A stretch of 64,000 bases of DNA from an uncultured Anaerolineales bacterium (GTDB lineage: Bacteria; Chloroflexota; Anaerolineae; UBA2200): positions 22,975 through 86,974 of the forward strand of contig CAYZGO010000007.1 in NCBI GenBank assembly GCA_964478075.1. The letters run 5' to 3'. The notes beneath the pieces were generated by a model, which searched no databases, was not told the origin of the DNA, and saw only the letters and a program-made list of their open reading frames with translations. The translations under genes and the position numbers were made by a program. Shown here piece by piece: positions 6,860-53,374 of the stretch (its first letter is position 1; each line of letters starts with the position of its first letter).

Positions 6860-7340
6860 TGTCAGTGTTGAAGCAATTGCTTCGTAGTACATTGTTACCT
6901 TAGTTCCGGTAACCTGTCATTCTGAGCTGCGCCATGGCGCATTCGCACCACTCGTTGTGCAAGAAACGGTGATGTGTCATTGCCTTTGGTCCTGGGCTAC
7001 CTTTGTCCCTGGGTCTTTGTCCCTGGGGCCAAAGACCCAGGGGAAGACCCAGGGGAAGACCCAGGGCGAGCGCAGCGAAGCAATCTCCCTCTCACCGACA
7101 GGTGCAGATTGCTTCGTCGCTACGCTCCTCGCAATGACACCACCCGCCCTTGTTTCTTAGTGGCGACCGGAGGGAGCGAAGAATCTCTATTACGTGATAC
7201 AAACGATTTCCATTGAGTAATCGGAGATTCCCTTCGGCCCGGCTCCCTTCGACTTTGCTCAGGGCAGGCAGGGCGGGCTTCGCCTTCGCTGAGCTCCGGC
7301 TCAGAATGACATAACCGTCGAAACTTCGGTAACGCTGTAG
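6860..7340. repeat. Copy A of a structured intergenic repeat element with nested inverted repeats around a GAAGCAATCT...AGATTGCTTC hairpin core
   Basis: The outer inverted repeat is GTCATTCTGAGC (about 6915) paired with GCTCAGAATGAC (about 7300). The inner inverted repeat is GTGTCATTGC paired with GCAATGACAC. The core hairpin is CGAAGCAATCT-N19-AGATTGCTTCG. A tandem GGGGAAGACCCAG tract and a GAAGCAATTGCTTC palindrome (about 6871) are also present. The sequence recurs at 11296-11970 and, degenerate, at 20640-20950. Confidence 0.75.
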
Positions 7341-9776: not shown

Positions 9777-11091
9777 TCAGGAGGCCATCATAGCCGGCAG
9801 GGTCGAGCCGGCGTGGGGCATGACAGCCAGCAAAGCTGCCTGCCCCATTTCACTTTGTGCAGCAGCCGGCGCTTCTTGAGCTGAGGCATAAGGCTCAAAA
9901 CCCATGGCCCGCACTAGCCCGGCATCCAGCGAAGAGACGAGAAAGATGCGCACACGCCGTCTTCGTATCTTGGCGATAGCTGCAGCCTTGTGACCGCCAA
10001 GCACAAATCGCTCCTGCAAGCGCCGGAGCAATTCATCGGGCGAATCCGCGCACGTCATCCACTCAGCGAAGCGGGAATGGCCAATGCCCTCTCCACACTC
10101 TGCCACGAGGATGATGATTCCGCCATCCCGAACAGCGTGAGCCGCATTCTCCAACGACTTATGTGCCTGGTACAGGTTAAGGTCCTTAGGCCATCCACCT
10201 GCACTGGCCAGCACAATGCCGGCCTGTTCAGCAAGCGGTACACGGTACAATTCATCAACTTTGCGGCAGCCCTGACGGTGTGCCAGAGTCACATCGCCAG
10301 CCGCAGGTTCCACGATGCGCTGATGGCCATCCAGCACCACGTCGAGAAGAAACGACGGGCCAACGAGTGCTGCGGCTTCCTCAATGTCTTCACGCACAGG
10401 GTTGCCTTCTATGCGTCCAGCAGCCGCGCTGTCCCGCACCATCCAGGAGTGATTGGCGCTGATCGTCTCCAGGCTGCAAACGCAGGGCAGCAGCGCCTTG
10501 GCGCCGCCTGTGTAGCCCGCAAAGTAATGGTATTCGATATTGCCTACGTACACGCGCCAGTCCGCCTCGACAACAGGACGGAACACCTGTACCGGTGTGC
10601 CTCGCCTGGTGTGTCCCACCTCGACAGACTGCTCACGGTTTACGTCCCCACAGCGTATTCGCCTGAAGAGCGCTTTGCCGACCAAGCGGGCCTGTTCTCC
10701 GGCAGTGTGCGGGCGGTGGCTGCCGAGGGCAAAGACGACACGGATGTCCTTTTCACACACGCCCGCTTGTGCAAGCTCGGACAGGAGAAGCGGGAGCAGG
10801 CGAGCGGTAGGGCAGGGTAATATCGCTGACCACGATGGCAACTCGTTGACCACGACGCACCAGCCGGCTCAAGCGAGCCATGCCATAGGGCACCTCGAGC
10901 GCACGGCGGATCAACGCCTCCTCGGAGGCTCGCGCTGAAGACGGCTGCCGTTCAGTGAGCAGCATCACGTCACGTTTCGGCAGCGACACTGTAAGCGTCG
11001 AGTTGCCATAGGCCAAGTTTATGCGGTTCAAGTACACCTCCAGAGTTGTCCTGACCAGGAGTAGTGCCGGCAAGCACATGCCTTGGCACAC
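9777..11091 (-). pseudogene. LarA-like (lactate racemase / DUF2088 family) gene split by a single frameshift near 10825. It is either a pseudogene or a sequencing error.
   Basis: The N-terminal 112 aa (10753..11091) ends ...RGQRVAIVVSDITLPYR. The C-terminal 358 aa (9777..10853) continues ILPCPTARLL...FALGSHRPHTAGEQ and contains the NIEYHYFAGYTGGAKALLPGV motif of the LarA family. The two frames overlap over 10753-10853. Confidence 0.6.
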
Positions 11092-11295
11092 CCATTATAC
11101 GGCGCTATGACTTAGGAACAAGCTGCCCCCCACATCGTGCGCTTTGGCGTTTGCTGCTGCATCTGCTATGCTTGGAAACGGGAGAACGGTAATGGGCAAT
11201 GAGGAGTACACCCCAAGGGTGCAAATCACGACCACGCTGTCCTCCGACACCACACCCGAGGCGGAGCGAGTGCTGATCAACCTGGCCCGACGCAT

Positions 11296-11970
11296 GCCGC
11301 CCTGGCGCATTCGCATCACTCGTTATGCAAGAGCCGGTGATCTGTCACTGCTTTTGGTTCTGGGCCACCTTTGTCCCTGGGGCCACCTTTGTCCCCGGGG
11401 CCAAAGACCCAGGGGAAGACCCAGGGCGAGCGCAGCAACCAAGGGGGGTCCCCGAAGCGAAGCGGAGTGGGGCGAAGCAATCCCCTCTCACCGACAGGTG
11501 CAGATTGGTTCGTCGCTGCGCTCCTACTAAGAAGGTCCAGTGTCGTTGCCTTTGGTCCTGGGGCCAAAGACCCAGGGGAAGACCCAGGGCGAGCGCAGCA
11601 ACCAACGGGAGTCCCCGAAGGGAAGCGGAGTGGGGCGAAGCAATCTCCCTCTCAGCCATAGGTGGAGATTGCTTCCTCGCTGCGCTCGTCGCAATGACAG
11701 ATCGGATGTTCTTACACAATGAGTGGCGCGGATGCGTCATGGAAAACCTCGCAGTGACATCACCCGCCTTTGTTTCTTGGTAGCGACACTTGCATCTGCG
11801 CTGCAAGTTCAGATGAGCGAAGGATCTCAGTCGTAGGGAAGCGAGATTCCCTTCCGCGTAGCGTCTCCCCCGTCAGGGAGTCTTCGCCTCCCTGCGGGGC
11901 GAACGGCGCCGCTCGCGGCGGACGGCGGACGGGCTCAGTGCGGGCTTCACTGCGTTCAGAATGAGAGCCT
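11296..11970. repeat. Copy B of the same structured repeat element, with a duplicated hairpin core and a 3' extension
   Basis: GGCGCATTCGCATCACTCGTTATGCAAGAGCCGGTGATCTGTCACTGC aligns to copy A at 6935-6990. There are two GCGAAGCAATC...AGATTG(G/C)TTC units (about 11470-11510 and 11640-11680), and the tail ACATCACCCGCCTTTGTTTCTTGGTAGCGAC ... GAGATTCCCTTC ... TTCAGAATGAGAGC matches A at 7135-7305. The six-frame ORFs in this region are artefacts of the repeats. Confidence 0.7.
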
Positions 11971-20495: not shown

Positions 20496-20639
20496 GTTAC
20501 CGACGTGGTAGCTTCCCTCTCTGGTGTTGGTGCCCTTTCTTCACCGCTGAGCACGCAGCCTCTTACGCTTGAAGCGAAAGAGACGCAGAGTGCGCAGAGG
20601 CTTTGTCCCAAAGGACTCAAGTCCGAAGGATTTCTCGAG

Positions 20640-20950
20640 TTCTCTCAGAGCGTGTCTGAAATTAGCCAGAGTGCCGACTACGGGATACCGCCAAGCATGA
20701 AAATGTCATTGCGAGGAGCGCTTTTTGCGACGAAGCAATCTCGTAGACGGGGGAGATTGCTCACCTGCACTTGCAGCGCAGGTGCAAGCGTCGCTCCGCT
20801 CGCCCTCTTTCTGGCGAGGCTGCGAAGCGTCCCCCGTCAAGCGGTCGCCCGCAGGGCATGCAGAGCACGAACGGCCGGCATCTCTTCGACGGGGCGGCGG
20901 TCTCTGCGGTGAAAGTGAACCGGCTTTCAATTCAACGCAATTGGGGAGAC
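20640..20950. repeat. Degenerate copy C of the structured repeat element, in reverse orientation
   Basis: TGTCATTGCGAGGAGCG...CGACGAAGCAATCTCGTAGACGGGGGAGATTGCT (about 20706-20765) is the reverse complement of the copy A/B core (GCGAAGCAATCT...AGATTGCTTCGTCGCT-CGCTCCTCGCAATGACA). Confidence 0.55.
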
Positions 20951-22446: not shown

Positions 22447-22521
22447 GCGGGGTGTGGCGCAGCCTGGTAGCGCGCAGCGTTTGGGACGCTGAAGTCGGAG
22501 GTTCAAGTCCTCTCACCCCGA
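22447..22521 (+). tRNA. tRNA-Pro (anticodon TGG)
   Basis: Cloverleaf folded by hand: acceptor CGGGGTG/CACCCCG, D-arm GCGC-AGCCTGGTA-GCGC, anticodon stem CAGCG/CGCTG with loop TTTGGGA, T-arm GGAGG-TTCAAGT-CCTCT. No encoded CCA. Confidence 0.8.
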
Positions 22522-22562
22522 CAGCAATAGCGGTCGAGCATTTGTGACCGCAGCCTGTGTTT

Positions 22563-22635
22563 GCGGGTGTAGCTCAGTTGGCAGAGCTCCTGCCTTCCAA
22601 GCAGGTTGTCACGGGTTCGAGTCCCGTCGCCCGCT
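22563..22635 (+). tRNA. tRNA-Gly (anticodon TCC)
   Basis: Acceptor GCGGGTG/CGCCCGC, D-arm GCTC-AGTTGGCA-GAGC, anticodon stem CCTGC/GCAGG with loop CTTCCAA, T-arm ACGGG-TTCGAGT-CCCGT. Confidence 0.8.
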
Positions 22636-22703
22636 CCTACTATGTGGAATACGCCTCCAGGCAAGATGCCAGAGCAGGTTGTGGTGGTGAACCCCCAACG
22701 TGC

Positions 22704-33475: not shown

Positions 33476-34963
33476 ATGCGGTCATATCTGCACGTGAGGT
33501 TGTTACTCACTGGCGGCCTGGTGGGGGCCTTGGCTTGGGCTGTCGTAGTATCGTTCCTGTGCACCGGCCCTGCGGTGGCCCAGAGCGGCGGGTGGAGTGA
33601 GCCCATCAACATCTCCAACACGCCGGGCAACTCCCGTTACCCGGAGATTGCGGCCGATGCGTGGGGCAACGTGCACGTAGTGTGGAGTGAGGATGAGGAC
33701 GGCCAGGGGTGGGGAGAATCCATCTACTACACGATGTGGAATGGCGAGGCATGGACCGAGTCGGTGGACATCTTCTACACCCCGCCAGCGGCTCACATCC
33801 CAGCCGTTGCAGCGGATAGCCTGGGATACGTGCACGTCGTGTGGAACGCGAACAACACGACGAGGTACAGCCGGGCCCGCATCGGCGATGGGCCCTGGTC
33901 GGCGGCTGCCTGGTCAAGGCCCCAAATCCTCAGTACACAGTCCGCTTTTACTACCTATTGGACCGACATCGCTGTTGACGACCAGGGGAACCTACACGTA
34001 GTTTGGACCGAACGGAGCGCGGAGGATGAACTCGAAGATTTGTACTACAGTCGCTCAGTGGATGGTGGACAGTCTTGGTCGCTGCCAATCAACCTTTCCA
34101 GTACTCCTGAGCAACAATCATCTTTTGAACAGATAATCACTGATGCTGAGGGCAATCCACATGTAGTTTGGCTGGAGCTGTCCAGGAGTCGTGCTGGCTG
34201 GGACGAGGGTGACGTTGGGGTTTTCCATAGCTGGTCTAGCGACGGTGGAGAGTCTTGGTTTGCCCCGGAGGAGATGTCGCAGCCAGGGCCGGAGGGGTTT
34301 AGTGGTGCCTATCCGGCAATCATTGCTGACGACCAATACGTTTACACTATCTGGAACGAGCGACGTAATGATCCTAGAAGAGATACCATTTTTGCTAGGC
34401 GATGGGAGGATGGTTGGTGGTCCGACATTGCGGTGGTGACGGACGACTCCGGCATGATAGGGACTAGTGGTATATGGACACGGGTTCGGGGCGTAGCGGA
34501 CGGGGCAGGCAACCTACATCTCGTGTGGGAGACGTGGGATGGCGAGGCTATCACCGTACAGTATGTGTGGTCCGAGGATGGAGGGCAGACCTGGTCGGTG
34601 CCGGTGGCGATCTCGAACCCGTCACCGCCGAGTGAACTCTGGCGAACCGACATTGCAGTCAGCGAGGAGAATCGGTTACATGTGGTGTGGTTTGGGGGCG
34701 GTGACATCTACTACGCCACCTATCAAACTACGGCACGGGCAGAGACGCCGCTTCCCTATGTGGCGAGTACCTCAGCTCCACCTACTGCCACGACCCCAGC
34801 AACGATGCCGTCTCCTACCGCCGTAATAGGCTCAACACCCAATCCAGCCATGGTGCAAGGAGGTGTGCTTCAGAGTTCCTGGTTCCCTTTGCTTGCTGGC
34901 ATTGTTCCGGTGATAGCGCTTGTGTTGCTGGTGATCGCTGTGCGGGGCAGGGCCCGACAGTGA
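33476..34963 (+). CDS. BNR/Asp-box repeat beta-propeller protein (sialidase-like fold) with a signal peptide and a C-terminal TM anchor
   Basis: N-terminal signal/TM. Seven blades marked by h-V-V-W motifs (NVHVVWSE, YVHVVWNA, NLHVVWTE, NPHVVWLE, YVYTIWNE, NLHLVWET, RLHVVWFG). Asp-box SxDxGxTW-like motifs SVDGGQSWS, SSDGGESWF, SEDGGQTWS. A Pro/Thr-rich linker, then WFPLLAGIVPVIALVLLVIAVRGRARQ. Confidence 0.7.
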   Translation: MRSYLHVRLLLTGGLVGALAWAVVVSFLCTGPAVAQSGGWSEPINISNTPGNSRYPEIAADAWGNVHVVWSEDEDGQGWGESIYYTMWNGEAWTESVDIFYTPPAAHIPAVAADSLGYVHVVWNANNTTRYSRARIGDGPWSAAAWSRPQILSTQSAFTTYWTDIAVDDQGNLHVVWTERSAEDELEDLYYSRSVDGGQSWSLPINLSSTPEQQSSFEQIITDAEGNPHVVWLELSRSRAGWDEGDVGVFHSWSSDGGESWFAPEEMSQPGPEGFSGAYPAIIADDQYVYTIWNERRNDPRRDTIFARRWEDGWWSDIAVVTDDSGMIGTSGIWTRVRGVADGAGNLHLVWETWDGEAITVQYVWSEDGGQTWSVPVAISNPSPPSELWRTDIAVSEENRLHVVWFGGGDIYYATYQTTARAETPLPYVASTSAPPTATTPATMPSPTAVIGSTPNPAMVQGGVLQSSWFPLLAGIVPVIALVLLVIAVRGRARQ

Positions 34964-35005
34964 TTCGTAGCGCAATAATGTAGAGACTATTACTGGGAGA
35001 GCAAG

Positions 35006-35647
35006 ATGCCTTCGATTTGGTATTACCATCCTCTTTTGTACGAATTTGGCGCAATCCTCCTCCAGGGGAATCGTTACAACAGAATGCTGTCCCGTGTTGC
35101 AGAGATGATAGGAAAGAACAAGTCAGTGCTTGATCTTGGGGCTGGGACGTGCAGACTTGCTTCAATGCTGGATAGCACGTGCACATATGAGGGCTGGGAC
35201 CTGAACCAAAGGTTCGTGAGTTACTATCAGCGTAAAGGGATAAACGTGAAGTTGATGGACGTGTTTCAGTATAGCTCATACCCGCCTGTTGATTGTATCG
35301 TGTTGTTGAATGTATTCCACCATGTAGCACCGAGGCAGTCAGTCCTGTTGAGACAATGCCTAGAGCACGCGGGAGAGAAGGTTATCGTCTGCGAGCTATT
35401 TCGTAATGTGGAATCTCGCCCAATATATTGGCGGCTGGTCAGGCTTCGCGAGATCCTGGGCTTGGAGAAGCTGATAGGAGATTGGGATGGTGTAAACAGG
35501 GAGTTCGATCGCTATCCGCTAATGAGCAAGGATGAACTCAGAGCTTTCTTGGATAAGCATGGACGGTGCAAAATCACCGAGCTAGATAACATGTCAATGC
35601 TGCTTGTAGTGTACCAAGTTGGCAGAGAAGGAGGGCAGTCGAAATGA
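35006..35647 (+). CDS. Class I SAM-dependent methyltransferase
   Basis: Motif I VLDLGAGTCRLASML. The region has lower GC. 213 aa. Confidence 0.65.
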   Translation: MPSIWYYHPLLYEFGAILLQGNRYNRMLSRVAEMIGKNKSVLDLGAGTCRLASMLDSTCTYEGWDLNQRFVSYYQRKGINVKLMDVFQYSSYPPVDCIVLLNVFHHVAPRQSVLLRQCLEHAGEKVIVCELFRNVESRPIYWRLVRLREILGLEKLIGDWDGVNREFDRYPLMSKDELRAFLDKHGRCKITELDNMSMLLVVYQVGREGGQSK

Positions 35648-37290
35648 GCAAGCGGAACGCCGTTCTTCTCGTATGGCGATACAAGATTCTCCTGGTGGTC
35701 CTTCTGGTTGGTGTTGTTCACATCCTTTCGCTAACAACACAAATCGGAGGTCATGATCAGTCACAATACGTTATGCTGGCGCAGTCCATTGCTGGTGGTC
35801 AGGGGTTTCGACAGCTAAATCTGCCCGGCAACCCACCAGAAAAACTCCGTGTTCCCGGATTCCCCTTGCTCCTTGCTCCGATTGCTTACCTCTGGCCTGG
35901 CTTTCCTGAGAATCTCCTTGGGTTCAGGTTGGTTTCCATTCTGTTCAGCTTGCTTTCTCTGGTAGCTGCATATTACTACTTTGTAAAACGCAAGGGCATC
36001 CAGCCACATATTGCCAGCCTCATGGTTCTACTTCTGGGGTTGAATCCCCTCATGGTCGTGTTTTCCTCGCAGGCAACTTTTTCCGAGATTCCTTACCTCT
36101 TCTTTTCGGTATTAGCTCTCTCGCTGCTGGAGGGGATTGGCGCCAAAAAAGGTGCCCGATATCTTGTAATAGCAGCCTTCGCGATATTGGCGAGCTATTT
36201 CATTCGAGTGGTGGGAATAGCCTTGTTGGCTGCCGGCGTGAGCAACTTTCTTTTAAGAAAAAGGTGGAAAGAGGCTGCAATCATCTTCCTGGTATTGGTC
36301 TTGTTTGTGCTGCCCTGGGCATACCGTAATTCCTCAGCAGGCACTTCGGCATTAACTACGGAACATGTTTGGTATATCCTGCAAAAGGATTATCAGAGAC
36401 CGCATCTTGGGACCATCGGCTTGCAAGACATGGCCCATCGCTTGCTCAACAACATCTGGGGGCATACAACAGAAACTATCTCATGGCTCTTTATCCCTTG
36501 GGCGGTAAATGGTTGGTGGCCAGCTTTTCTGGCCCGTCTTCATTTACAACAACTGGCGTGGACGTCGGCAGCTCTTGGTCTTGCCGTGTCTGGCCCGTGC
36601 ATCCTGGGGTACATTCTGACTTTGAAAGAGAAGTTGACCGTCACTCATCTCTATGTCTTCTTCCTCATAGGCATTATCCTGTTGGCCCCCTGGTACGTGG
36701 AGCGAAACCTGTGGCCGCTGCTGCCTTTCCTGCTCTACTACTTTGCCGTGGGCCTGCGTTGGTTTGTTGAGAGGGCATCGCTTTTGCGGCGCAAGTCGCT
36801 TTCTCTGGCTGCGGCGGCCACTGTGGTCGCTTTGTGTATTATCCTGTTCGGTTTTGCGGCGAGCGACAGACATCTGTTGGCAGCGGGGGCGGCGTATCGA
36901 GCTGGAGAGATTGATGAGTCGGAGAGGGTCTTTGGCGAGATGTGCGAATGGATTCGCAACAATACTTCCCCCGACGATTTGCTCCTTTACCGCTTTCCGG
37001 TCAAAACTTATCTCTACACCAGGCGTAAAGTGATGGGCATTCCCATGATCATAGACCACGACGCGTTCCTCTCTGAGCTGAATCATGCTGGTGTGGACTA
37101 CGTCGTGCTGGAACCTGATCGGCAACAAGGGTATGAGTATGGGTGGTTCGATCAGGTCTACTTGCAGCCAGCCGTGACTGCCTATCCTCAATCTTTTGTC
37201 CCTGTGCACCAGATCGGCACCGATCCCGACCATCCTGCGCTCGTGATATATCGTTTTGAGAGCCTGCCAGCGCTGGGCGAGGAGCAATAA
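35644..37290 (+). CDS. GT-C fold membrane glycosyltransferase (GT39/ArnT-like)
   Basis: 548 aa with about 11 TM helices in the N-terminal 400 aa and a C-terminal soluble domain. ATGA coupling with the upstream gene. Confidence 0.6.
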   Translation: MSKRNAVLLVWRYKILLVVLLVGVVHILSLTTQIGGHDQSQYVMLAQSIAGGQGFRQLNLPGNPPEKLRVPGFPLLLAPIAYLWPGFPENLLGFRLVSILFSLLSLVAAYYYFVKRKGIQPHIASLMVLLLGLNPLMVVFSSQATFSEIPYLFFSVLALSLLEGIGAKKGARYLVIAAFAILASYFIRVVGIALLAAGVSNFLLRKRWKEAAIIFLVLVLFVLPWAYRNSSAGTSALTTEHVWYILQKDYQRPHLGTIGLQDMAHRLLNNIWGHTTETISWLFIPWAVNGWWPAFLARLHLQQLAWTSAALGLAVSGPCILGYILTLKEKLTVTHLYVFFLIGIILLAPWYVERNLWPLLPFLLYYFAVGLRWFVERASLLRRKSLSLAAAATVVALCIILFGFAASDRHLLAAGAAYRAGEIDESERVFGEMCEWIRNNTSPDDLLLYRFPVKTYLYTRRKVMGIPMIIDHDAFLSELNHAGVDYVVLEPDRQQGYEYGWFDQVYLQPAVTAYPQSFVPVHQIGTDPDHPALVIYRFESLPALGEEQ

Positions 37291-37291
37291 C

Positions 37292-38905
37292 GTGGAAGCG
37301 ACAAGCGGCGAAACCGAGGCCACCGATGCCGGTTTGCAGGATGGGGGAGAGAGGAAAGCTCCCGCAGCCCTCTCGGTCAAAATCCTGCGCAACGCCATCG
37401 CCAACTATGGTGGCGTGTTTGTGACCAGGCTGGTGGGCTTCTTGCTGACCCCTTTCATCGTCCACCGGCTGGGCGATACGGCATATGGTATCTGGGCATT
37501 GACGGGGGGCATCGTCGCCTACCTCGGCTTGCTGGACTTGGGTATGTCTGCTTCAGTGGCAAAGTACGTCGCGGAGTATAGGGCCAAGAACCAGCCGCAG
37601 AGCGTGAATGAGATTGTTAGCACCGTCTTCATGCTCTATTGCTTGCTTAGCCTGCTTGTCCTGTTCGCTATACTGGTTCTCTCGCTGTATTTCCCTGCAA
37701 TCTTCAACGTTGAGGGAGGGTATGGCCAAATAGGCCGGGTTGCGCTCTTCCTGGTTGGGATTGACTTTGTGATTATGCTGCCCACCAGCATACTCAACGC
37801 CATCCTGGTGGGCTATCAGCGGTTCGACCTCAACTACCTTGCTGGCATTCTCGCGTTGCTTGTGAAGAGTGTGCTGATTGTTGTTCTGTTGAACCTGGGC
37901 CTTGGCCTTGTTGGGCTGGCGACTACGAGCATTGTGTCAACGTTGCTTCTCACAGCGGCGCGGTTCTGGGCTACGAAGAGGACTGCTCCAAAACTACGCA
38001 TTCATCCCAAGCTCTTCAGACGTGACATTGTGCCATCAGTGGGGAAGTTCAGTCTTGTGGTTTTTGGTCTGCAAGTCACGGGATTGGTAATCTATCACAC
38101 AGACAACATCGTCATTGGGCTGTTTCTCCCTGTGGCGGCCATTACCCCTTTTGCTATTGCTTATAAGCTGGGTATTCTTGTTCGAGACGCTATTGCCCAA
38201 CCTCTAGGTTCGGTCCTTATGCCCGCTTTCTCTGAGCTGGATGGGATGGGCAGGGCCGAGGACAGGGAGAGAATCAGGCGGCTGCTTATTCAAGGGACAA
38301 AGGCCACCTCCGTTTTGGTATTGCCGATTACTGCCTTTCTGATCGTCATGGGAGAACATATCATCCGTTTGTGGGTGGGAAAGGAGTACGTAGGCACAAG
38401 CACACCCGTGCTGTATGCTCTGACTGTCTTCTTCCTCAGTAACGCCCTTTTCAGAACCGGGGCGAATCTGCTTTTTGGCCTCGGCAGACTGAGGCGGTAT
38501 TTGTACGTGTGCACCGGCATGGCTTTAGGCAATCTCCTGCTCAGCACGCTTTTGGTTCAGTTTCTTGGCATAACGGGTGTGGCGATAGGAAGCGCCATTC
38601 CTATGGCTATAGGTTGTGGACTGTTTCTTTTTCCACACGCATGCGAGGTCGTAGGATTGCCCATAAAGAGGTTCTTCGGGGAATCGTTTGTGCCTGCTGC
38701 AATCCCAATCATCCCCACCGTTGTCATCACACTTCTGCTATCCAGATACTGGCCCCCTGTCAACTTGGCTGTTCTGGCCCTTCAGTTCATGATATGTGTC
38801 TCCTCCTATGGACTGATTTATCTGATGTGCATAAGCAAAGAGGAGAGGACCAGCTATGCCGCACGAATGAGGGGATTGAGGCGCATAACGCACGAGAGAA
38901 CGTAG
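37292..38905 (+). CDS. Wzx-like oligosaccharide flippase (MOP/polysaccharide biosynthesis protein family)
   Basis: About 12-14 TM helices and an N-terminal region like flippase helix 1: LRNAIANYGGVFVTRLVGFLLTPFIVHRLGDTAYGIW. GTG start just after the upstream stop. Confidence 0.7.
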   Translation: MEATSGETEATDAGLQDGGERKAPAALSVKILRNAIANYGGVFVTRLVGFLLTPFIVHRLGDTAYGIWALTGGIVAYLGLLDLGMSASVAKYVAEYRAKNQPQSVNEIVSTVFMLYCLLSLLVLFAILVLSLYFPAIFNVEGGYGQIGRVALFLVGIDFVIMLPTSILNAILVGYQRFDLNYLAGILALLVKSVLIVVLLNLGLGLVGLATTSIVSTLLLTAARFWATKRTAPKLRIHPKLFRRDIVPSVGKFSLVVFGLQVTGLVIYHTDNIVIGLFLPVAAITPFAIAYKLGILVRDAIAQPLGSVLMPAFSELDGMGRAEDRERIRRLLIQGTKATSVLVLPITAFLIVMGEHIIRLWVGKEYVGTSTPVLYALTVFFLSNALFRTGANLLFGLGRLRRYLYVCTGMALGNLLLSTLLVQFLGITGVAIGSAIPMAIGCGLFLFPHACEVVGLPIKRFFGESFVPAAIPIIPTVVITLLLSRYWPPVNLAVLALQFMICVSSYGLIYLMCISKEERTSYAARMRGLRRITHERT

Positions 38906-38942
38906 CGCATCATGGAATGCGAGGAGGCGAAGCGAGGAGTAA

Positions 38943-39848
38943 ATGGTTGAGCCAATACGGGAATTGAGGGCCATCTGTCAAAGCAAGGATGAGGAGGAGA
39001 CAGGGTATCTCAAGGTTGTAGCTAGAAGGGCGTCAATACAGGTTACTAGACTACTGCTGCATACGCCTATCACTGGCAACCAAGCGACTTTGCTCTACAT
39101 TGTGACCGGGCTGGTTGCCGGCATATTCTTTGTTCCGGGTAATACGTGGTGCACGATAATTGGGGTCTTTCTCCTCCAATTGTGGTTCGTTATGGACTGC
39201 GTTGATGGAGAAGTGGCGCGCTATCGAAAGACAGCGAGCTTGACTGGCATATACCTTGATGAGTTGTCTCATCACATCGTGCACCCTTATGTCTTCGCTT
39301 GTGTGAGTTTTGGTGTATACAATAGTCTTCATGATGTGAGAGCATTCATGTTTGGTTTCTTGGTCGTCTTGTCCATGAGTTTGTATGCTGCGGTGCAAGA
39401 TTGTCGTGCCAAGGCGATTCTTGACAACTTTCGCAGGGGCTACCTTTTTACCGGAGAGGAGATTTCCAGCGAAAGGACAGGGGACTCGAGCACCTTGCTC
39501 CGCGAGGACTGGCCAGGAAAGGGCAGCTGGGATGCGTCAATTGCAAGGCGCATTGCGAAGAAACTAGGCCTGCTTGTGCTATACAGGCTTGACTTTTTGT
39601 ATCGAGCTCCGGCTTTCAGCAACATCATCACTGCGGCAGCGCTGACGGATTGGTTTGTGCCAGATGTTAGTGCCGGTCCCATCACAATTAACAATGTGTA
39701 TGCGGTGCTCATAGCTTATGCTCTGGTTCTACCCATCGTTGTTGCGGGGACTGCCTATTTGGCTGTTCGAGATAGAACCACCGAATGGGAGTATGGTGTG
39801 TTGTCGTATTGGTTGAGGGAATCGTCGAGAAAGAATAAACATGCCTGA
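38943..39848 (+). CDS. CDP-alcohol phosphatidyltransferase family protein
   Basis: Signature D-x2-DG-x2-AR...G-x3-D-x3-D: DCVDGEVARYRKTASLTGIYLDELSHHIVH. Multi-TM. RBS GAGGAG present. Confidence 0.8.
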   Translation: MVEPIRELRAICQSKDEEETGYLKVVARRASIQVTRLLLHTPITGNQATLLYIVTGLVAGIFFVPGNTWCTIIGVFLLQLWFVMDCVDGEVARYRKTASLTGIYLDELSHHIVHPYVFACVSFGVYNSLHDVRAFMFGFLVVLSMSLYAAVQDCRAKAILDNFRRGYLFTGEEISSERTGDSSTLLREDWPGKGSWDASIARRIAKKLGLLVLYRLDFLYRAPAFSNIITAAALTDWFVPDVSAGPITINNVYAVLIAYALVLPIVVAGTAYLAVRDRTTEWEYGVLSYWLRESSRKNKHA

Positions 39849-40091
39849 AAATAGCCCATACTTGACTGCCCCTGCAGCTATCAACAGGCTTGGAGTGCCG
39901 CCTTGACGGTTGACTGATCGCCAGAGTGTCATGCTTGCGTCTTGAGGAATTGTGTGAGACGCATACTTGAAATCGGTGGCAGTTGAAGAAATGCGCGTGA
40001 GCGGGGGCGCTGGCTTCCACCGGGCGGCCCATTTTTGCGGCAATAGGGAGGCCACGGAGACCTTGCAGGCATATCGGGAGGCAGCGCGCGC

Positions 40092-43359: not shown

Positions 43360-44692
43360 CACCATCCGGCGCAGGCTGCAACATTATGACCGCTACCTGA
43401 CCACCGCTGCAGTGGTGGTGGGCTTGTTGCTGGCCGAGGTGGTAGTGGTACGGCGCATATTGGCCTTCGGGCCTGGCTTCGTCGCAGCGGCAGCGCTTTC
43501 CCTGGTGGGAGCCATAGCCATCTTGTGGAGATTAGAGTTGGGCTTTGCCCTGCTCGGCGGCCTTTCTATGTATGCTAACCCTGCGATCTTCGATGTGCGG
43601 GGGCGGGAGATTGACGTGATCCACCTGGTGGGCGCACTTGTCGTCGTGGTCTGGCTCCTGCGCCGCCTGGTGGTGCAGCGGGACCTGCGCCCGCCCCGCT
43701 CCAGGCTCAATACCCCCCTGCTGACGCTGGTGCTCGTATGGCTTATCACCTGGATCGCCGGCTACACCTTCTGGGACATGCGCGTGCCCACGGCGCAGCG
43801 CCAGCCGCTTTTCTTCGTGACCGAATTTGGCCAGTTGCTCATGTTTATCGGCGTCTTCTGGGCCGTGGCGGATACGGTGAAGGACGAGCGGTGGGCCAAG
43901 CCCATCTGTGCCACGATCACTATCGTCAACGCCTCGACGGCTCTCACGGGCGGCCTGGGCTGGAACCAAACACCGGTCGCACTGGCACTCACCTGCTCGC
44001 TGCTGGCTTTTGGCGAAGCGGACTTCCGCGTGAAGGCAGGATTATGGCTGGTACTTGGCATTTTCCTGTGGGGTCTGATCCGGGTGAATCGCATCCCGGT
44101 CTACCTGGCTAGCATGGCGGTGGTGCTCGTGGTTGCCTTGTTCAAATCCAGGCAGCTCTTCGCACTGTTGCTTATCATCTTCGTCATCCTGGGCGTGGCG
44201 TTCATCAGGCCGCTTTGGGAGGTCGAGACCAGCGTGTTCAGCCGCCTGGAACTGGTCAAGGCGGCTTTGTCCATCTTCCGGGATCATCCTATCCTGGGTA
44301 TCGGGCCGACGCACTATCGCTCCTACGCCATTCTCTACCATCGTGGTCTGGGCTGGCATACGGTAGAGCGTGGGCTATTGTTGCCTCACGACGTGTGGCT
44401 CTACTTCCTGGCGAACGTGGGAATAGTAGGCCTGATTGGAATACTCTGGGTCGTAGGTTCGATGTTGTGGGGTCCTTTTTCCACCTATCGCCGGACAGAG
44501 GACGCCTTCTCCAAAGTCCTGGCAGTGGGTGCCCTGGCCTGCGTGAGTGGTGTGTTGGTTCAGAGTATAGGAGGGCATATGGGCTTCTTGCCGGACTACA
44601 GTCTGTCGTCATTTTACATGGCGCCGGTGTGGATTCTGATGGGGCTGATGGTTGCGAGGAGGCAAGGGACGGTCGAGGAGCAGAATGATTGA
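43352..44692 (+). CDS. O-antigen ligase / Wzy-like polymerase family membrane protein
   Basis: 446 aa with 10-12 TM helices and a periplasmic loop motif (LGIGPTHYRSY). It overlaps the upstream stop. Confidence 0.6.
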   Translation: MISTIRRRLQHYDRYLTTAAVVVGLLLAEVVVVRRILAFGPGFVAAAALSLVGAIAILWRLELGFALLGGLSMYANPAIFDVRGREIDVIHLVGALVVVVWLLRRLVVQRDLRPPRSRLNTPLLTLVLVWLITWIAGYTFWDMRVPTAQRQPLFFVTEFGQLLMFIGVFWAVADTVKDERWAKPICATITIVNASTALTGGLGWNQTPVALALTCSLLAFGEADFRVKAGLWLVLGIFLWGLIRVNRIPVYLASMAVVLVVALFKSRQLFALLLIIFVILGVAFIRPLWEVETSVFSRLELVKAALSIFRDHPILGIGPTHYRSYAILYHRGLGWHTVERGLLLPHDVWLYFLANVGIVGLIGILWVVGSMLWGPFSTYRRTEDAFSKVLAVGALACVSGVLVQSIGGHMGFLPDYSLSSFYMAPVWILMGLMVARRQGTVEEQND

Positions 44693-45623
44693 CCTCTCCA
44701 TTGTCATCGTGAATTGGAACACGCGCGATCTGCTGGCGCAGTGCTTGCAGTCGGTGTACGAGACGGTGCGAGAACTGGAGTTCGAGGTATTCGTGGTGGA
44801 CAATGCTTCGAGCGATGGCAGTACGACGATGGTGAAGAAGGAGTTTCCGCAGGTCAAGCTAATCGAGAACAATGAGAATGTGGGATTTGCCAGAGCGAAC
44901 AACCAGGCAATTGCCCAGAGCCAGGGACGGTACGTCTTGCTCCTGAACAGCGATACGTTGGTGTTGCCAGGCGCAATTGACAGAGTCGTGGCGTTTATGG
45001 ATCAGCATTGGGAGGTAGGCGCAGCCGGTTGTGCGGTGTTGAATCCCGATGGCACGTTGCAACTTTCCCACAAAACCGCCTTTAGCATAGGCAACGAACT
45101 TGTGTATGCAACGTTCCTGGGTCGCTTTGTTGCACAACGGATGCCGTTTCCCAAAGACGTGCTTCAGCACGGGCAGAAGCCTTTCGTCTCTGAATACCTT
45201 GCTGTGGACGCGGTATCTGGTGCCTTCCTGCTGGTCCGCCGTGAGGTGATGGACGAAGTAGGGTTGTTGGACGAACGCTTTTTCATCTACTCCGAAGACG
45301 ATGATTGGTGTTTTCGCATCAGACAGGCGGGGTGGCAAATCTGCTACCTACTGAATGTTCGGATCATCCACTATGGTGGGCAAAGCACGCGTCAAGAAAG
45401 TGCCGAGATGTTCCTCCAACTCTACAAGAATCGGTTTCTGTTCTACCGGAAAAACTATGGGCAGCTCAAAGCGTCTTTCCTGAAATGGGTATTCATTGCT
45501 GAGGCGTGGGTAAAACTGGCTGCGTGGGCCGGAGTATATCTCTCAAGATTGGGCAGGCGTGCAGTAGCCAGGGAGAGGATTTGGGCCCTCTGGAGACTTG
45601 CAACCAAAGGCGTGTGGCTTTGA
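44685..45623 (+). CDS. GT2 glycosyltransferase (rhamnosyl/glycosyl transferase WbbL-like)
   Basis: MIDLSIVIVNWNTRDLLAQCLQS...VVDNASSDGS...DAVSGAFLLVRREV. Confidence 0.75.
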   Translation: MIDLSIVIVNWNTRDLLAQCLQSVYETVRELEFEVFVVDNASSDGSTTMVKKEFPQVKLIENNENVGFARANNQAIAQSQGRYVLLLNSDTLVLPGAIDRVVAFMDQHWEVGAAGCAVLNPDGTLQLSHKTAFSIGNELVYATFLGRFVAQRMPFPKDVLQHGQKPFVSEYLAVDAVSGAFLLVRREVMDEVGLLDERFFIYSEDDDWCFRIRQAGWQICYLLNVRIIHYGGQSTRQESAEMFLQLYKNRFLFYRKNYGQLKASFLKWVFIAEAWVKLAAWAGVYLSRLGRRAVARERIWALWRLATKGVWL

Positions 45624-45687
45624 CATCCCCAAGAGGAAGTGCCCGATATGGAACTTGTGCGCTGCGAATTATGCGGCAGTGATAAGC

Positions 45688-46701
45688 ATGACACGGAATG
45701 AGTGCAAGAAACTGGATCTAGCGGTTGTTATCGTTAACTGGAACACGGGCCAACTCCTACAGCAGTGTGTAGCCTCAATCTATGCCTACGCCCCCCATTG
45801 CAGTTTTGGCGTTTGGGTGGTTGACAATGGCTCCCACGATGGTAGTGCGGAGATGGTGAGGGCAAACTTCCCCAACGTGCATCTCGTCGTTAAGGAAGCC
45901 AATCTAGGGTTTACAAAAGCCTTCAATGATGTTCTTCGTCATACACGTGCCGAGTATGTTGTGTCGTTGCATCCCGATACCGAGGTAATGGCGGGTGCCT
46001 TGCAGGCCATGATCGACTATATGGAGAGTCATCCAGAAGTGGCGACAATAGGCGCCAAGCTGGTATATCCTGATGGAGAATGGAACAAATCGTGGTTCGA
46101 CTTCCCAACGTTAGCGACAGAGCTTTCTAAAGCTCTACTGCTGCACAGGTTGTTTCCTGCAAGCCAGACCCTAAACAGAACTGCTATGACGCCAGGAATT
46201 GCTTCTCAGCGTTGGGCTCACCATGTACTACAATCTGTCGGCTGGGTGTCTTCCGCGTGCCTACTCCTGCGCAGAGAGATCATTCAAACCATTGGTCTAC
46301 TCGATGAGCATTATCTCGTGTGGTGGGCGGATGTTGACTGGTGTTATCAAGTGCACAAAGCTGGCTGGTGCGTACACTACTTGCCTCAAGCCAAAGTCGT
46401 GCACTACGAGAGACGAAGTTTCCGAAGCGGCGCGCAGCATTTTGACCCCCATCTGGCCTATAAAGAGAAGGACTATCTACCAACAGAAATGACATGCCGG
46501 AATATCATTTATTTCTTTCGAAAGAACTATGGACGCCGGGAAGCGGTCTTGTTGCGGGCGATACTGGCCGTCGGATACTTTACTAGAGTGGTTGCCTGTT
46601 GCGCGGCGTTGGCGCTGTTGCCTCCGAGGAGAGTTGAAGCTAGAGAGAGACTCCTGAACTATTGGCAAGGGCTGAGAGTAGCGTTAGCTTATGGTGGATG
46701 A
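45688..46701 (+). CDS. GT2 glycosyltransferase, a tandem paralog of the previous gene
   Basis: LAVVIVNWNTGQLLQQCVASI...VVDNGSHDGS has the same architecture as the upstream GT2. Lower GC. Confidence 0.75.
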   Translation: MTRNECKKLDLAVVIVNWNTGQLLQQCVASIYAYAPHCSFGVWVVDNGSHDGSAEMVRANFPNVHLVVKEANLGFTKAFNDVLRHTRAEYVVSLHPDTEVMAGALQAMIDYMESHPEVATIGAKLVYPDGEWNKSWFDFPTLATELSKALLLHRLFPASQTLNRTAMTPGIASQRWAHHVLQSVGWVSSACLLLRREIIQTIGLLDEHYLVWWADVDWCYQVHKAGWCVHYLPQAKVVHYERRSFRSGAQHFDPHLAYKEKDYLPTEMTCRNIIYFFRKNYGRREAVLLRAILAVGYFTRVVACCAALALLPPRRVEARERLLNYWQGLRVALAYGG

Positions 46702-46827
46702 TGCGGGATTTCTCGTATTCCCCCCAGGCTGACCCAAAAATCGTGCCTACTACGTATTGTGTTCCTTGGCCGCTCAGCATGAGGTGACTTGGTCAGCTTC
46801 GCCCTACGAACGAAGGTGGTGTAATTC

Positions 46828-47640
46828 ATGAACCAGACTGTGCGGACGTTTCTCAAAGAGCGACTGCCTGCTGGCGTAATAGACCAGGTCAGATTGGCCA
46901 GAAACGCTTTGCGCTTACTTTGCTGGCAACTACGACCACCTGATAGCGGTGGCCCCGTCCTGCTGAGCCAGCCGGATCGTCAGTTTGATGTCCTTTTGTG
47001 GAGTTCTTGTGATCAGTTTGAGGTGATTGTACGACCCTTCGTCGAAGAATGCCGTTGGCCTTTGCCTGAGGTATACAATGGTTTCTTTGAAGCTATTGAC
47101 GCTGAATTCTACTATTGTGCGGTTCGAGCCTGGCGTCCCGAAACGATTATTGAGATCGGTTCAGGTTGGGCCACGCGATTTGCTGTACGTGCCCTGGCTA
47201 GAAACGGAGGGGGGCAGATTATCAGTATTGATCCTGAACCACGTCGTGTCTTACCAGCCCAAGTAACTCATATCCAATCAAGGGTGGAGGAAGTCGAGCT
47301 TGGTGCATTTGACCAACTTCAGGCAGGTGACATTCTCTTTATAGATTCCAGTCATAGCAGGCAAGAGGCCGAGTATCATGCAACGCACATTCTTGAGCGT
47401 CTCAAGCCAGGTGTCTTTGTTCATTATCATGACATTATGTATCCTTATCAACGTTGGTCTGATGAGGAAGAGGTGATACTGGATTTTTACCACCATCACC
47501 AGGCATCGTTTGAGGTCCTGACTGGTCTTGCTTTTGTTCGTCACATGTGTCCAGACCTCTGTCTATCGCTTGTGCCATCTTTCCGACGTATGGTGAATCG
47601 TGTGCCAGGCTCGCTTTGGGCGCGTAGGAAGACAGATTAG
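46828..47640 (+). CDS. CmcI/TylF-like class I methyltransferase-fold protein (sugar O-methyltransferase candidate)
   Basis: TIIEIGSGWATRFAVRA...ILFIDSSHSRQE resembles the CmcI-family motif (tIiEiG...GGS; lfiDsdH). Confidence 0.5.
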   Translation: MNQTVRTFLKERLPAGVIDQVRLARNALRLLCWQLRPPDSGGPVLLSQPDRQFDVLLWSSCDQFEVIVRPFVEECRWPLPEVYNGFFEAIDAEFYYCAVRAWRPETIIEIGSGWATRFAVRALARNGGGQIISIDPEPRRVLPAQVTHIQSRVEEVELGAFDQLQAGDILFIDSSHSRQEAEYHATHILERLKPGVFVHYHDIMYPYQRWSDEEEVILDFYHHHQASFEVLTGLAFVRHMCPDLCLSLVPSFRRMVNRVPGSLWARRKTD

Positions 47641-48839
47641 TGCGCATTCTCTTCCTTACCCAGGTCCTTCCTTATTCCCTGGACGCTGGTCCCAAAATCC
47701 GCGCCTACTACGTTCTGCGCTACCTGGCGCAACAGGACGAGGTGACGCTGCTCTCACTCGTGCGGGGAAGCGACAAGCCGGAGCACATCGACCACCTGCG
47801 GCAGTTCTGCCGCGAGGTGCATACCATCCTTATCCACCGGTCCAGAGCCAGAGACGCCGTTTACCTGCTCGGCAGCCTGGTCACAAACCAGCCATTCCTC
47901 ATCCTACGCGATGGCGTCCCGGAGATGTGGGAGCGCGTGCACGAACTGCTAGCAGGAGGCCAATTCGATGTTGTGCACGCCGACCAATTGTGGATGGCTC
48001 AGTATGCCCTACGGGCTAAATGCCGAATCCCAAAGTTGGTGCTGGACGAGCACAACGCCGTCTACACCATCCCCCAGCGCCTGGCCGAGCAAGAACGGAA
48101 CCCGTTCAAACGCCTGCTGCTGGAGCTCGAATGGCGCAAACTGGCTCGTTATGAGGGAGAAGTGTGCCGGCGATTCGACCACGTGATAACGGTGACAGAG
48201 GAAGACAGACAAGCCTTCTCTCGACTCGGGGTTTCCAGTTCTCAGCTCACCACCATCCCCATTTGCATCGACCCTCAGGAAATCGCAGTCGTAAGACGCA
48301 ATGCCGGGGCTCAAGACATCATCCATATCGGCACCATGTTCTGGCCGCCTAACATAGATGGCGTCCTGTGGTTCGCAAAGGAGGTCTTCCCTCTGGTCAG
48401 GCGGCAAATACCTGGGGCCAGATTCTACGTTGTGGGCAAGAATCCGCCCAAGGAAGTTCGCCAATTGTCACACTCATCTTCCATCATCGTCACCGGCTAC
48501 GTGGAAGACCCCACTCCCCACTTTGCCGACAGCGCCGTCTTCATCGTCCCCCTGCGGGCTGGCGGTGGCATGCGGGTGAAGATCCTGAACGCCTGGGCCA
48601 GGGGGGTTCCCATCGTCTCCACCACCATTGGCTGTGAGGGGATAGAGGTCCGGGATGGCCAAGACATCGTGATAGCCGACACGCCCCCAGATTTCGCCCA
48701 GGCGGTGGTCAGGGTGATACGGGATAAGGCATTGGCCCAGCGCCTGGCACAGGCCGGCCGGCAGTGGGTGGAGCAGAGGTACGATTGGCGGACGGTGTAC
48801 CGGAAGCTGGACGAAGTGTATGCAAATCTGGCGAAGTAG
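47640..48839 (+). CDS. GT4 (group 1) glycosyltransferase
   Basis: MRILFLTQVLPYSLDAGPKIRAYYVLRYL... then GT-B C-terminal motifs FIVPLRAGGGMRVKILNAWARGVPIVST. Confidence 0.75.
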   Translation: MRILFLTQVLPYSLDAGPKIRAYYVLRYLAQQDEVTLLSLVRGSDKPEHIDHLRQFCREVHTILIHRSRARDAVYLLGSLVTNQPFLILRDGVPEMWERVHELLAGGQFDVVHADQLWMAQYALRAKCRIPKLVLDEHNAVYTIPQRLAEQERNPFKRLLLELEWRKLARYEGEVCRRFDHVITVTEEDRQAFSRLGVSSSQLTTIPICIDPQEIAVVRRNAGAQDIIHIGTMFWPPNIDGVLWFAKEVFPLVRRQIPGARFYVVGKNPPKEVRQLSHSSSIIVTGYVEDPTPHFADSAVFIVPLRAGGGMRVKILNAWARGVPIVSTTIGCEGIEVRDGQDIVIADTPPDFAQAVVRVIRDKALAQRLAQAGRQWVEQRYDWRTVYRKLDEVYANLAK

Positions 48840-48861
48840 GGTATAGCACACACAAATCGGC

Positions 48862-49815
48862 ATGGCAAAGACTGTGAACTGCAATCTCTGTGGCACGAAC
48901 GATGCTCGGGTCCTCTTTCGACCATCGCGGTCTCCAGGACCTGTTGTCAGGTGCCGGGACTGTGGCCTGGTCTATGTCAGCCCCCGCAAGAATACCAGGG
49001 CGATAATCTTTGAGGGGCCTGAGATTGGGAACTATGCCCCCAGAATGCTTATCAGCTCAGATCTTGGTGATCTGACAGGGTGTTGGGAAAGATCTGCGAT
49101 TGAGGAAGACGAGGCAGAACTGTCAGCTAAGGTAGTCAACGCTCATCGGGCTCTAGACCGCATTGAGCAACTGATGTCTCACAAGGGAACCATGCTCGAT
49201 CTCGGGTGCTTCTGTGGCACGTTTCTCCATGTGGCGGCGGAACGGGGTTGGCGCAGCTACGGGATAGAGCCCCTTGTCGGCCCGGCGATCTACGCGCGTG
49301 GAGAGTTCGGGCTCAACGTCATCACGGACACGCTGCGGGATGACAGCTTCCCGCCAGAGTTCTTCGATGTGGTAACCGCATTTCAGGTCTTTGAGCACCT
49401 TCCTGATCCACTGGGAGAGTTGACAAAGATTCGGCGCATTCTCAAGCCCGGGGGGCTGGTCGTGGTTGAGGTGCCGAACATTGACACCGTTTGGGTGAGA
49501 TTACTGGGCAAGTACCACAGACACTTTGTCCCGGATCACATATACTTCTTTTCGCCACAAACCCTGGAGGCGCTTCTGGCGAAGGCGGGATTCACAGTAA
49601 TGCAGATTCAAGCCTGGCCACGGACACTCAGTCTTCGGAAAGTTGCTCGCTGGACCGGGCGAGTTGGGGGTGTGCCATTCGGCAAAGTCGTTGCGACGGC
49701 CGTGCGTTGCCTTCACCTCCAAAACAGCATGATTACTGTGGATCTTGGAGACGTCATATGCGCCTTTGCTCGCAAGAGTGTAGTTCCTGAAGGAATGTCC
49801 TCGCTTGCCGGGTAA
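48862..49815 (+). CDS. Class I SAM-dependent methyltransferase with an N-terminal Cys4 zinc ribbon
   Basis: CNLCGT...CRDCGLVY zinc ribbon, motif I MLDLGCFCGTFLH and LKPGGLVVVEVPN. Confidence 0.7.
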   Translation: MAKTVNCNLCGTNDARVLFRPSRSPGPVVRCRDCGLVYVSPRKNTRAIIFEGPEIGNYAPRMLISSDLGDLTGCWERSAIEEDEAELSAKVVNAHRALDRIEQLMSHKGTMLDLGCFCGTFLHVAAERGWRSYGIEPLVGPAIYARGEFGLNVITDTLRDDSFPPEFFDVVTAFQVFEHLPDPLGELTKIRRILKPGGLVVVEVPNIDTVWVRLLGKYHRHFVPDHIYFFSPQTLEALLAKAGFTVMQIQAWPRTLSLRKVARWTGRVGGVPFGKVVATAVRCLHLQNSMITVDLGDVICAFARKSVVPEGMSSLAG

Positions 49816-49828
49816 CGGCCGGCGCTAA

Positions 49829-49912: not shown

Positions 49913-49954
49913 CTCTGTGCCTGATTCCGGCAGGTCTGACAGAAGGCCATATAT

Positions 49955-53356: not shown

Positions 53357-53374
53357 GGCCGCGGAGGCGAGTCC

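Follow-up and report, generated by a model that had tools for sequence, protein, structure and literature searches.

The repeat element described here lies at positions 6915-7311 of a 64-kb stretch of contig CAYZGO010000007.1 from an uncultured Anaerolineales bacterium (the window, meaning all 64,000 nucleotides that were analysed). It very probably represents a cluster, resembling a bacterial interspersed mosaic element (BIME), of non-coding hairpin repeats of the Ssn-related motif (SRM) kind, also described as CGTC/TGTC-tagged repetitive extragenic palindromes (REPs). The element, called copy A, consists of four units forming two inverted pairs, one of which lies within the other's arm and itself encloses a third, small hairpin. 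The evidence comes from the anatomy of the units, their enrichment and nesting in the window, the paralogy between copy A and a second locus (copy B), an association with ssn genes that holds throughout the family, and the homology between the linked proteins and the Neisseria nuclease SsnA. Copy A is real but essentially an ordinary repeat cluster, with a family that has been named and a partner enzyme that has been characterised already. A first-pass annotation of this DNA had not been able to match the element to a named family; its units can be placed among the SRM (NTS/dRS3 of Neisseria; Chenal et al., 2025, PMC11893778), as well as among the CGTC/TGTC-tagged REPs (Di Nocera et al., 2013, PMC3733652). 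Its interest lies at the level of the family, in an ATTGC subtype that spans phyla and escapes the published motif, and in comparative hints of mobility.

Anatomy of the composite

What are the nested layers of copy A made of? All of them come from one kind of unit, in which TGTC is followed by a stem of 5 bp, by GA, by an inner hairpin that varies, by GA or GAA, by the return stem and by CTC; in the window the stem is of the ATTGC/GCAAT or the ATTCT/AGAAT type. The ends of an ATTGC-type unit are TGTCATTGCGAG...CGAAGCAATCTC. The individual repeats and the three nested layers of inverted repeats (6915-7311) listed in the first-pass annotation are all present: TGTCATTCTGAGC at 6915-6927 and GCTCAGAATGACA at 7299-7311 are complementary at 13 of 13 positions, GTGTCATTGC at 6974-6983 has its partner GCAATGACAC at 7131-7140, the core CGAAGCAATCT-N19-AGATTGCTTCG has its arms at 7076-7086 and 7106-7116, and three tandem copies of AAGACCCAGGGG at 7032-7067 pair with three copies of CTTTGTCCCTGGG at 6984-7027. 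Folded as single-stranded DNA (ssDNA), 6905-7320 reaches -106.9 kcal/mol as compared to -66.3 +/- 4.9 kcal/mol for shuffled sequences (z = -8.3), a value matched by 0 of 100 shuffles, and the predicted fold is the nested arrangement. The innermost hairpin on its own (6984-7067) folds at -27.6 kcal/mol (z = -4.6). Moreover, the unit motifs are strongly enriched, TGTCATTSYGAG occurring 5 times in the window where 0.03 occurrences are expected and CGAAGMAATCT 4 times where 0.06 are expected.

The composite as a whole is an ATTCT-type inverted pair with its TGTC tags pointing outward and its CTC tails inward, and the rest is nested within it. Outer unit A1 on the plus strand has its 5' half, TGTCATTCTGAG, at 6915-6926 (an exact motif match) and its 3' half, GCGAAGAATCTC, at 7176-7188 (from the half-site map), the two halves being separated by 249 nt in place of the usual inner hairpin. 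Its minus-strand partner A4 (7223-7311, 89 nt) is composed of TGTCATTCTGAG, a long inner segment and CGAAGGGAATCTCC, and the spacer of the outer pair (7189-7222) contains a small ATTAC/GTAAT inverted repeat. Within A1 the middle layer has a left arm at 6930-6974 and a right arm at 7140-7167, both given on the plus strand and common to 11298-11342 and 11760-11787 of copy B, respectively; AAGAAAC and GGTG of the left arm pair with GTTTCTT and CACC of the right arm. The perfect 12-nt palindrome GCGCCATGGCGC at 6929-6940 is probably incidental, since its counterpart in copy B, GCCGCCCTGGCGC, is non-palindromic. Further inside lies the inverted pair of ATTGC-type units A2 and A3 (6975-7139), previously seen as a GAAGCAATCT hairpin core, and this architecture recurs in many genomes. 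The 16-nt spacer that forms its loop (7089-7104) belongs to a part that varies in length and sequence throughout the family. Unit A3 (7105-7139) is intact and canonical and reads TGTCATTGCGAGGAGCGTAGCGACGAAGCAATCT on the minus strand. Unit A2 on the plus strand is divided into a first part, TGTCATTGC at 6975-6983, and a remainder, GAGCGCAGCGAAGCAATCTCC at 7068-7088, by the innermost hairpin of 84 nt (6984-7067), in which three copies of CTTTGTCCCTGGG face three copies of AAGACCCAGGGG; elsewhere the uninterrupted counterpart of the first part is TGTCATTGCGAGCGCAGCGAAGCAATCTC.

The tandem repeats of this innermost hairpin, CTTTGTCCCTGGG and AAGACCCAGGGG, are 12-14 nt long, and the copy numbers in its two arms vary from 3+3 (6984-7067) to 3+2 (11352-11427) and 1+2 (11550-11590). 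No match to the innermost hairpin was found in the viral sequences of IMG/VR, for which reason it looks lineage-specific. Immediately outside the outer pair, TAACC at 6910-6914 (plus strand) is repeated at 7312-7316, so that a possible 5-bp target duplication brackets the pair exactly. This is probably a coincidence, because no target-site duplication above the shuffled control was found in 253 distinct unit pairs of other genomes. A degenerate remnant lies upstream of the composite at 6860-6884; it comprises TGTCAGTGTT and then the palindrome GAAGCAATTGCTTCG and, judged by its sequence, looks like two unit 3' halves joined tail to tail.

Copy B (11298-11966) is a paralogue of copy A and is layered in the same way, but it lacks the left outer 5' half. 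It is 79% identical to copy A over 6930-7129, and its segment 11747-11787 is 88% identical to 7127-7167. Between these two regions of similarity, copy B carries an extra segment of 221 bp (11526-11746) that holds a second ATTGC-type pair within the right arm of the first one. Because of this segment, copies A and B constitute an empty/filled pair within one genome.

The unit family and its partner gene

The unit was followed beyond the window by scanning IMG/VR for TGTCATTGCGAG-N(8-38)-GAAGCAATCT, which matches at least 120 stretches, as does likewise the corresponding ATTCT version. In the matches listed, the recurrent object is a unit of 29-60 nt and not the 400-bp composite. From 5' to 3' it is ordered as pyrimidine tract, T, GTC, ATTGC, GA, G, variable hairpin, C, GAA, GCAAT and CTC, the tract being a G-depleted segment at -11 to -3, 5' of TGTC. 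In some IMG/VR units, and in the phage portal protein P0076, two to four stacked 5' halves (tract plus TGTCATTGCGAG) precede one complete unit; the tract and the stacked halves may reflect a mechanism of cleavage or copying. The T preceding GTC is kept in 94% of 176 units, and TGTC stands 5' of the stem in all of the window units A1-A4, B1, B2, B3, C1, D1 and D2. Those window units that have a 3' half all read ...AAT-C; it is the window units that provide independent evidence for this C, which was part of the search patterns in the wider sets.

Conservation of the ends goes together with extreme variability of the centre, since 193 IMG/VR units contain 135 different inner hairpins. The outer ATTGC/GCAAT stem is predicted to be kept in about 115 of the 135 variants, most of them with a GA/GAA internal loop. 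Inner-stem positions pair in 52-78% of 208 distinct units as compared to 30-45% when partners are shuffled (set of 537 units, 235 distinct centres), with every type of Watson-Crick pair represented and GNA triloops predominating. The outer stem covaries as well: in loci chosen by protein similarity alone and not by the repeat, ATTGC/GCAAT was counted 228 times, ATCGC/GCGAT 9 times, ATCAC/GTGAT 5 times, ACTGC/GCAGT 4 times and ATTAC/GTAAT 3 times. Relative to co-directional flanking genes, 30 units lie on the same and 26 on the opposite strand according to a crude gene call, and this lack of bias argues for an element that probably acts at the DNA level.

How widely is the unit distributed? At least 119 stretches in a collection holding one genome per species, spread over more than 15 phyla, contain the 34-mer of unit A3, TGTCATTGCGAGGAGCGNAGCGACGAAGCAATCT, when one position is left free. 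Among the matches listed, carriers include Chryseobacterium isolates, Helicobacter sp. CLO-3, Treponema, Alphaproteobacteria and Gammaproteobacteria, and furthermore Chloroflexota, Planctomycetota, Omnitrophota, Patescibacteria, Desulfobacterota, Acidobacteriota and Fibrobacteria. Identity over 34 nt between phyla is unusual for a non-coding repeat. Plasmids of Methylosinus, Methylocystis, Calothrix, Aulosira and Halomonas carry the 34-mer as well, as do a few phage records in GenBank. In genomes, units most often stand as inverted pairs of 70-140 bp whose tags point outward and whose tails face each other across a variable spacer, and solo units are common. Additional copies and covariation, both named in the first-pass annotation as points to check, were thus found, the copies in many other genomes and the covariation in the stems.

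Is there a gene that travels with the units? All-against-all clustering of 2026 open reading frames (ORFs) from 119 genome loci yielded no recurrent family of proteins of at least 100 aa near units. At three genome loci, one from Chryseobacterium oranimense (L141) and two from metagenome-assembled genomes (MAGs; L156 and L212), a shorter gene of about 95 codons fits precisely into the space between a unit and an inverted one. From an alignment of these proteins of about 95 aa, 80 metagenomic homologues were selected purely on protein similarity. With up to 2 mismatches allowed, the motif was found by 61 of the 80 genes, on both sides in 42 cases, only downstream in 14 and only upstream in 5. 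Together these 80 loci cover 108 kb and hold 228 ATTGC-type units. The proteins are 92-96 aa long and contain GIY-YIG (PF01541) as their sole domain; no relative in PDB was found by sequence, and NCBIfam has no model for them. Over 94% of its length, a unit-flanked protein shares 54% identity (E = 3e-24) with a 94-aa ORF of Neisseria gonorrhoeae, around which five canonical NTS repeats lie within 1070 bp. At the level of sequence this establishes that the GIY-YIG protein beside ATTGC-type units is homologous to Neisseria SsnA. The records NZ_CP119140.1 and NZ_CP119142.1 (L442), labelled as plasmids in PLSDB, are 2.17-Mb chromosomes of N. gonorrhoeae that carry ssnA among NTS.

In Neisseria, the repeat NTS (CGTCATTCCCGCGMAVGCGGGAATCYRG), which is dRS3 in a longer reading, is bound by SsnA, a 94-aa GIY-YIG nuclease, exclusively as ssDNA, RNA not being bound, and is cut a few nucleotides upstream (Chenal et al., 2025, PMC11893778). 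Three nucleotides 5' of the NTS palindrome are critical for cutting and a C 3' of it is critical for binding. The same study found Ssn-related motifs near 71% of ssnA homologues, on both sides in 42%, and noted the layout repeat-ssnA-repeat as similar to an insertion sequence (IS), drawing an analogy to REPIN and RAYT (PMC11893778). The partner expected for such repeats is a single-domain GIY-YIG protein of about 94 aa (CDD cd10448). By analogy, the TGTC-bearing strand of a unit would fold into a hairpin whenever it becomes single-stranded, as in replication, repair or DNA uptake, and an Ssn of about 95 aa encoded elsewhere would bind this hairpin and nick a few nucleotides upstream. The arrangement unit-ssn-inverted unit would be the autonomous form and the gene-less inverted pairs its derivatives, which would spread and become nested through an insertion process without target duplication. 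We infer that an Ssn enzyme of this organism may act on the copies in the window, that Ssn may drive the spread of the units, and that the cluster may affect neighbouring genes.

Insertion events can be seen in the SPP1-type portal proteins (PF05133) of Dehalococcoidia-like phages, where one surface position is a hotspot for in-frame insertion of units (L084, 528-2000; L008, 3846-5330, minus strand; L089, 488-1546; L123, L124 and L125; proteins P0001-P0120). Portal proteins that lack an insert are 458 aa long and relatives that carry one 466-503 aa. Some inserts consist of one unit (IASAAKQS), others of a long-hairpin unit (IASPDAIGTKQS), and inverted pairs or stacks of 5' halves are found as well. 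It is tempting, albeit tentative and on balance somewhat doubtful, to regard the units as the ends of a mobile-element family that spans many phyla, has the Ssn of about 95 aa as its sole protein and pairs and solo units as derivatives, with Ssn serving as an ssDNA 'transposase' or homing nuclease. Insertion into the hairpins of earlier copies would then explain the triple nesting of copy A. If this were true, the ATTGC-type unit would be among the most widely distributed bacterial repeats and Ssn a new kind of ssDNA enzyme for mobility. In any case, the nesting, the comparison of copies A and B and the portal insertions bear on the question raised in the Ssn paper, namely whether repeat-ssn-repeat is, or once was, mobile.

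Other loci in the window and rival explanations

The first-pass annotation had counted two further copies in the window. Copy B is indeed a paralogue of the whole composite, but copy C (20704-20806) is only an ATTGC-type pair having about 70 nt in common with copy A, and a fourth locus at 654-756 had been overlooked. In copy C an intact ATTGC-type unit on the plus strand (20704-20742) is followed by a 10-nt spacer and a degenerate inverted unit, which is interrupted by a 25-nt hairpin (20764-20788). This second small hairpin, ACTTGCA(n)CTGCGCTGCAAGT, also occurs inside copy B (11788-11808). The fourth locus is a simple inverted pair of the ATTCT type with a degenerate left unit and an intact right unit on the minus strand (700-756), and its ssDNA fold has a z of -2.5. 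All four loci are intergenic: the genes around copy A converge, those around copies B and C diverge, and 654-756 is flanked by two ABC-transporter genes that run in the same direction. Near copy B, a lactate-racemase-like gene (9777-11091, minus strand) appears to be broken into two ORFs that overlap (9777-10853 and 10753-11091), the shorter of which carries Lar_N; this could indicate a frameshift or a pseudogene.

ORFs of 67-153 aa cross the clusters, and none of the seven has a significant Pfam match; the sole match, GPHR_N on 20505-20912 (through copy C), is weak and below the cut-off. The 112-aa ORF 11192-11530 on the plus strand is an annotated gene of the MAG that begins in unique sequence and extends into copy B; it has no Pfam match and is probably a spurious or truncated gene call. 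With the puzzling intergenic structure now named, the ORFs through the clusters, such as 11192-11530, can be regarded as probably spurious. At the gathering threshold, only two tRNAs in the window match Rfam, a permissive threshold gave just sub-threshold noise from microRNA models in the copy A region, and a contig with five canonical units had no match; nor was an intrinsic-terminator signature found at the clusters. The genes for tRNA-Pro(TGG) (22448-22522) and tRNA-Gly(TCC) (22563-22637) adjoin each other. Elsewhere in the window, the blocks 34000-40000 and 44000-54000 have a G+C content of 0.51-0.54, as compared to 0.58-0.65 in the remainder, with a strong AT skew, and may be horizontally acquired or cell-envelope gene clusters. 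For the UvrD-like helicase of the source MAG, the closest named hits come from an Anaerolineae bacterium and a Leptolinea species, which makes an origin in Anaerolineae probable.

Which other explanations could account for such a structure? It had been proposed at first that the element was typical of a MITE (miniature inverted-repeat transposable element) or of a REP/BIME. The latter part has held up, as the clusters are non-coding and consist of inverted pairs of one palindromic unit, but the former has not. A classical MITE would be a deletion derivative of an IS with TGTCATT...AATGACA termini, mobilised in trans by a DDE transposase and flanked by a target duplication. The TG...CA termini, the 70-140-bp pairs with inverted ends, the TAACC direct repeat around the outer pair of copy A and the existence of a gene-carrying form with the same ends would all suit this explanation. 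We nevertheless consider it very unlikely: target duplications do not exceed the shuffled control in 253 distinct pairs, the gene between the ends encodes a GIY-YIG nuclease of 95 aa and not the transposase of a known IS, and no other protein family is recurrent near units in the 119 genome loci. Furthermore, solo units are common, each 'terminal repeat' is itself a hairpin, and MITEs are normally genus-specific (PMC11602168), in contrast to the 34-mer found in many phyla. Highly improbable, too, is a REP/REPIN system served by a RAYT, that is by a Y1 HUH transposase similar to IS200/IS605, even though the organisation into solo units, inverted pairs of variable spacer and clusters, the lack of target duplication and the presumed ssDNA hairpin are the same and the Ssn paper itself makes this analogy (PMC11893778). 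The tag is TGTC instead of GTAG, the gene flanked by units is of the GIY-YIG kind in 61 of 80 loci, and no RAYT-like family recurs in the 119 genome loci.

Could the units act as RNA? The suggestion of a structured small RNA (sRNA) family, or of mRNA elements that act in cis, for instance as stabilisers, processing sites or terminators, draws on conserved loop residues and covarying stems like those of functional RNAs, on the position of many phage-contig units just upstream of a ribosome-binding site, and on the setting of copy A between genes that converge, whose 3' ends a hairpin could affect. REPs influence mRNA stability, which also speaks for this suggestion. It is nonetheless improbable, as neither Rfam threshold gave a match for the copy A region, where the first-pass annotation had recommended the search, orientation is balanced (30 versus 26), no intrinsic-terminator signature was found, units are tolerated in frame within ORFs, and triloops of the GNA type closed by C-G are typical of stable DNA hairpins. 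Moreover, the partner enzyme is specific for ssDNA and SsnA does not bind RNA (PMC11893778). A secondary side effect of the units at the RNA level may exist all the same. That the region is what is left of a disrupted protein-coding gene, or a local duplication that belongs to no family, can practically be set aside: ORFs of 67-153 aa do cross the clusters and 11192-11530 is an annotated gene in the MAG, but a coding remnant recognisable by Pfam was not found among the seven ORFs, the same units occur at hundreds of unrelated loci, and the 'peptides' are six-frame shadows of the repeat. Three further candidates were considered and discarded. A hammerhead or other small ribozyme or a k-turn was suggested by the GA...GAA loop next to GUC, with the CUGA turn and stem I missing and Rfam giving no match; a search for a transposase between inverted units returned two candidate ORFs, a phage helix-turn-helix protein and a tail-like protein; and, to our knowledge, the core sequences of integron attC or dif/Xer sites do not fit.

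The assignment of copy A to a BIME-like cluster of SRM-kind repeats has to be weighed against several observations. Some of the window units are degenerate or interrupted, and recognition may be lost in those that carry insertions of 84-249 nt. A profile search of ORFs of at least 50 aa found no ssn homologue in the 64-kb window, so that the copies there may be relics without a partner enzyme, and mobilisation of repeats by Ssn is an idea that has only been raised (PMC11893778). The boundaries of the portal insertions are undefined, because filled and empty sites are too diverged in DNA. Single units fold like shuffled sequences (z about 0 with nearest-neighbour DNA parameters), and for a single unit it is consequently covariation only that argues for structure. 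In addition, the published SRM string HGTCWYN(0-2)YYVSBRHN(0-5)WNVSBRGN(0-2)RNCYNB matches NTS but has 0 hits both in the window and among the 80 ssn loci, which is why membership is based on shared architecture and protein homology.

Comparison with known repeat systems

Bacterial MITEs such as Correia/NEMIS and Nezha resemble the present repeats in being small, non-coding and intergenic, in having inverted ends, in nesting and in occurring also on contigs called viral. They differ in that the units described here have neither a target duplication nor an IS parent with a DDE transposase, in that solo half-elements are common, and in that the units span phyla, whereas MITEs are 97% genus-specific (PMC11602168). 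With REP/BIME and REPIN-RAYT systems they share hairpin units, spaced inverted pairs, mosaic clusters, absence of target duplication, a small single-copy enzyme gene flanked by repeats and a presumed ssDNA substrate; the tag is TGTC here and GTAG there, and the enzyme a GIY-YIG nuclease here and a Y1 HUH transposase there. The unit strings were found neither in REP surveys nor in a large MITE census, and literature searches by sequence strings and by repeat-encoded peptides returned nothing relevant.

A closer likeness exists to the 'CGTC-tagged REPs', a group that comprises dRS3 and the Rickettsia repeats RPE-4 and RPE-6, in which CGTC is often changed to TGTC and which form dimers and clusters and insert in frame into ORFs, where they encode 20-30 aa (Di Nocera et al., 2013, PMC3733652). 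The units described here have the same short palindrome with a tag at one end, in its TGTC variant, occur as singletons, inverted dimers and clusters, and insert in frame into ORFs, namely into phage portal genes. As points of difference, the 2013 survey lists five phyla without Chloroflexota among them, ATTGCGAG and GAAGCAAT are absent from its main text, and its dimers are mostly in the opposite orientation (PMC3733652).

The closest relatives are SRM and NTS, from which the units differ in their bipartite build, with a 5-bp outer stem, a GA/GA(A) loop and a hypervariable inner hairpin in place of the continuous 8-9-bp stem of NTS, and in the lack of an ssn gene in the 64-kb window. The SRM string was derived from 29 genomes as a search aid and is not a definition; being unmatched by it, the ATTGC/ATTCT units are therefore filed as a subtype that the string does not capture, and since these subtypes are very widespread among bacteria and on viral-labelled contigs, surveys based on the string probably undercount the family. 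Common to both are a directional hairpin in which an ATT...AAT palindrome is immediately preceded by GTC on its 5' side and immediately followed by C on its 3' side; an imperfect palindrome of 20-50 nt with a predicted ssDNA hairpin, for which covariation is seen in inner and outer stems; hundreds of intergenic copies that tend to cluster; the layout repeat-ssn-inverted repeat, which belongs to the unit type and is not found at copy A; and a partner of about 94 aa with a single GIY-YIG domain, 54% identical between the two.

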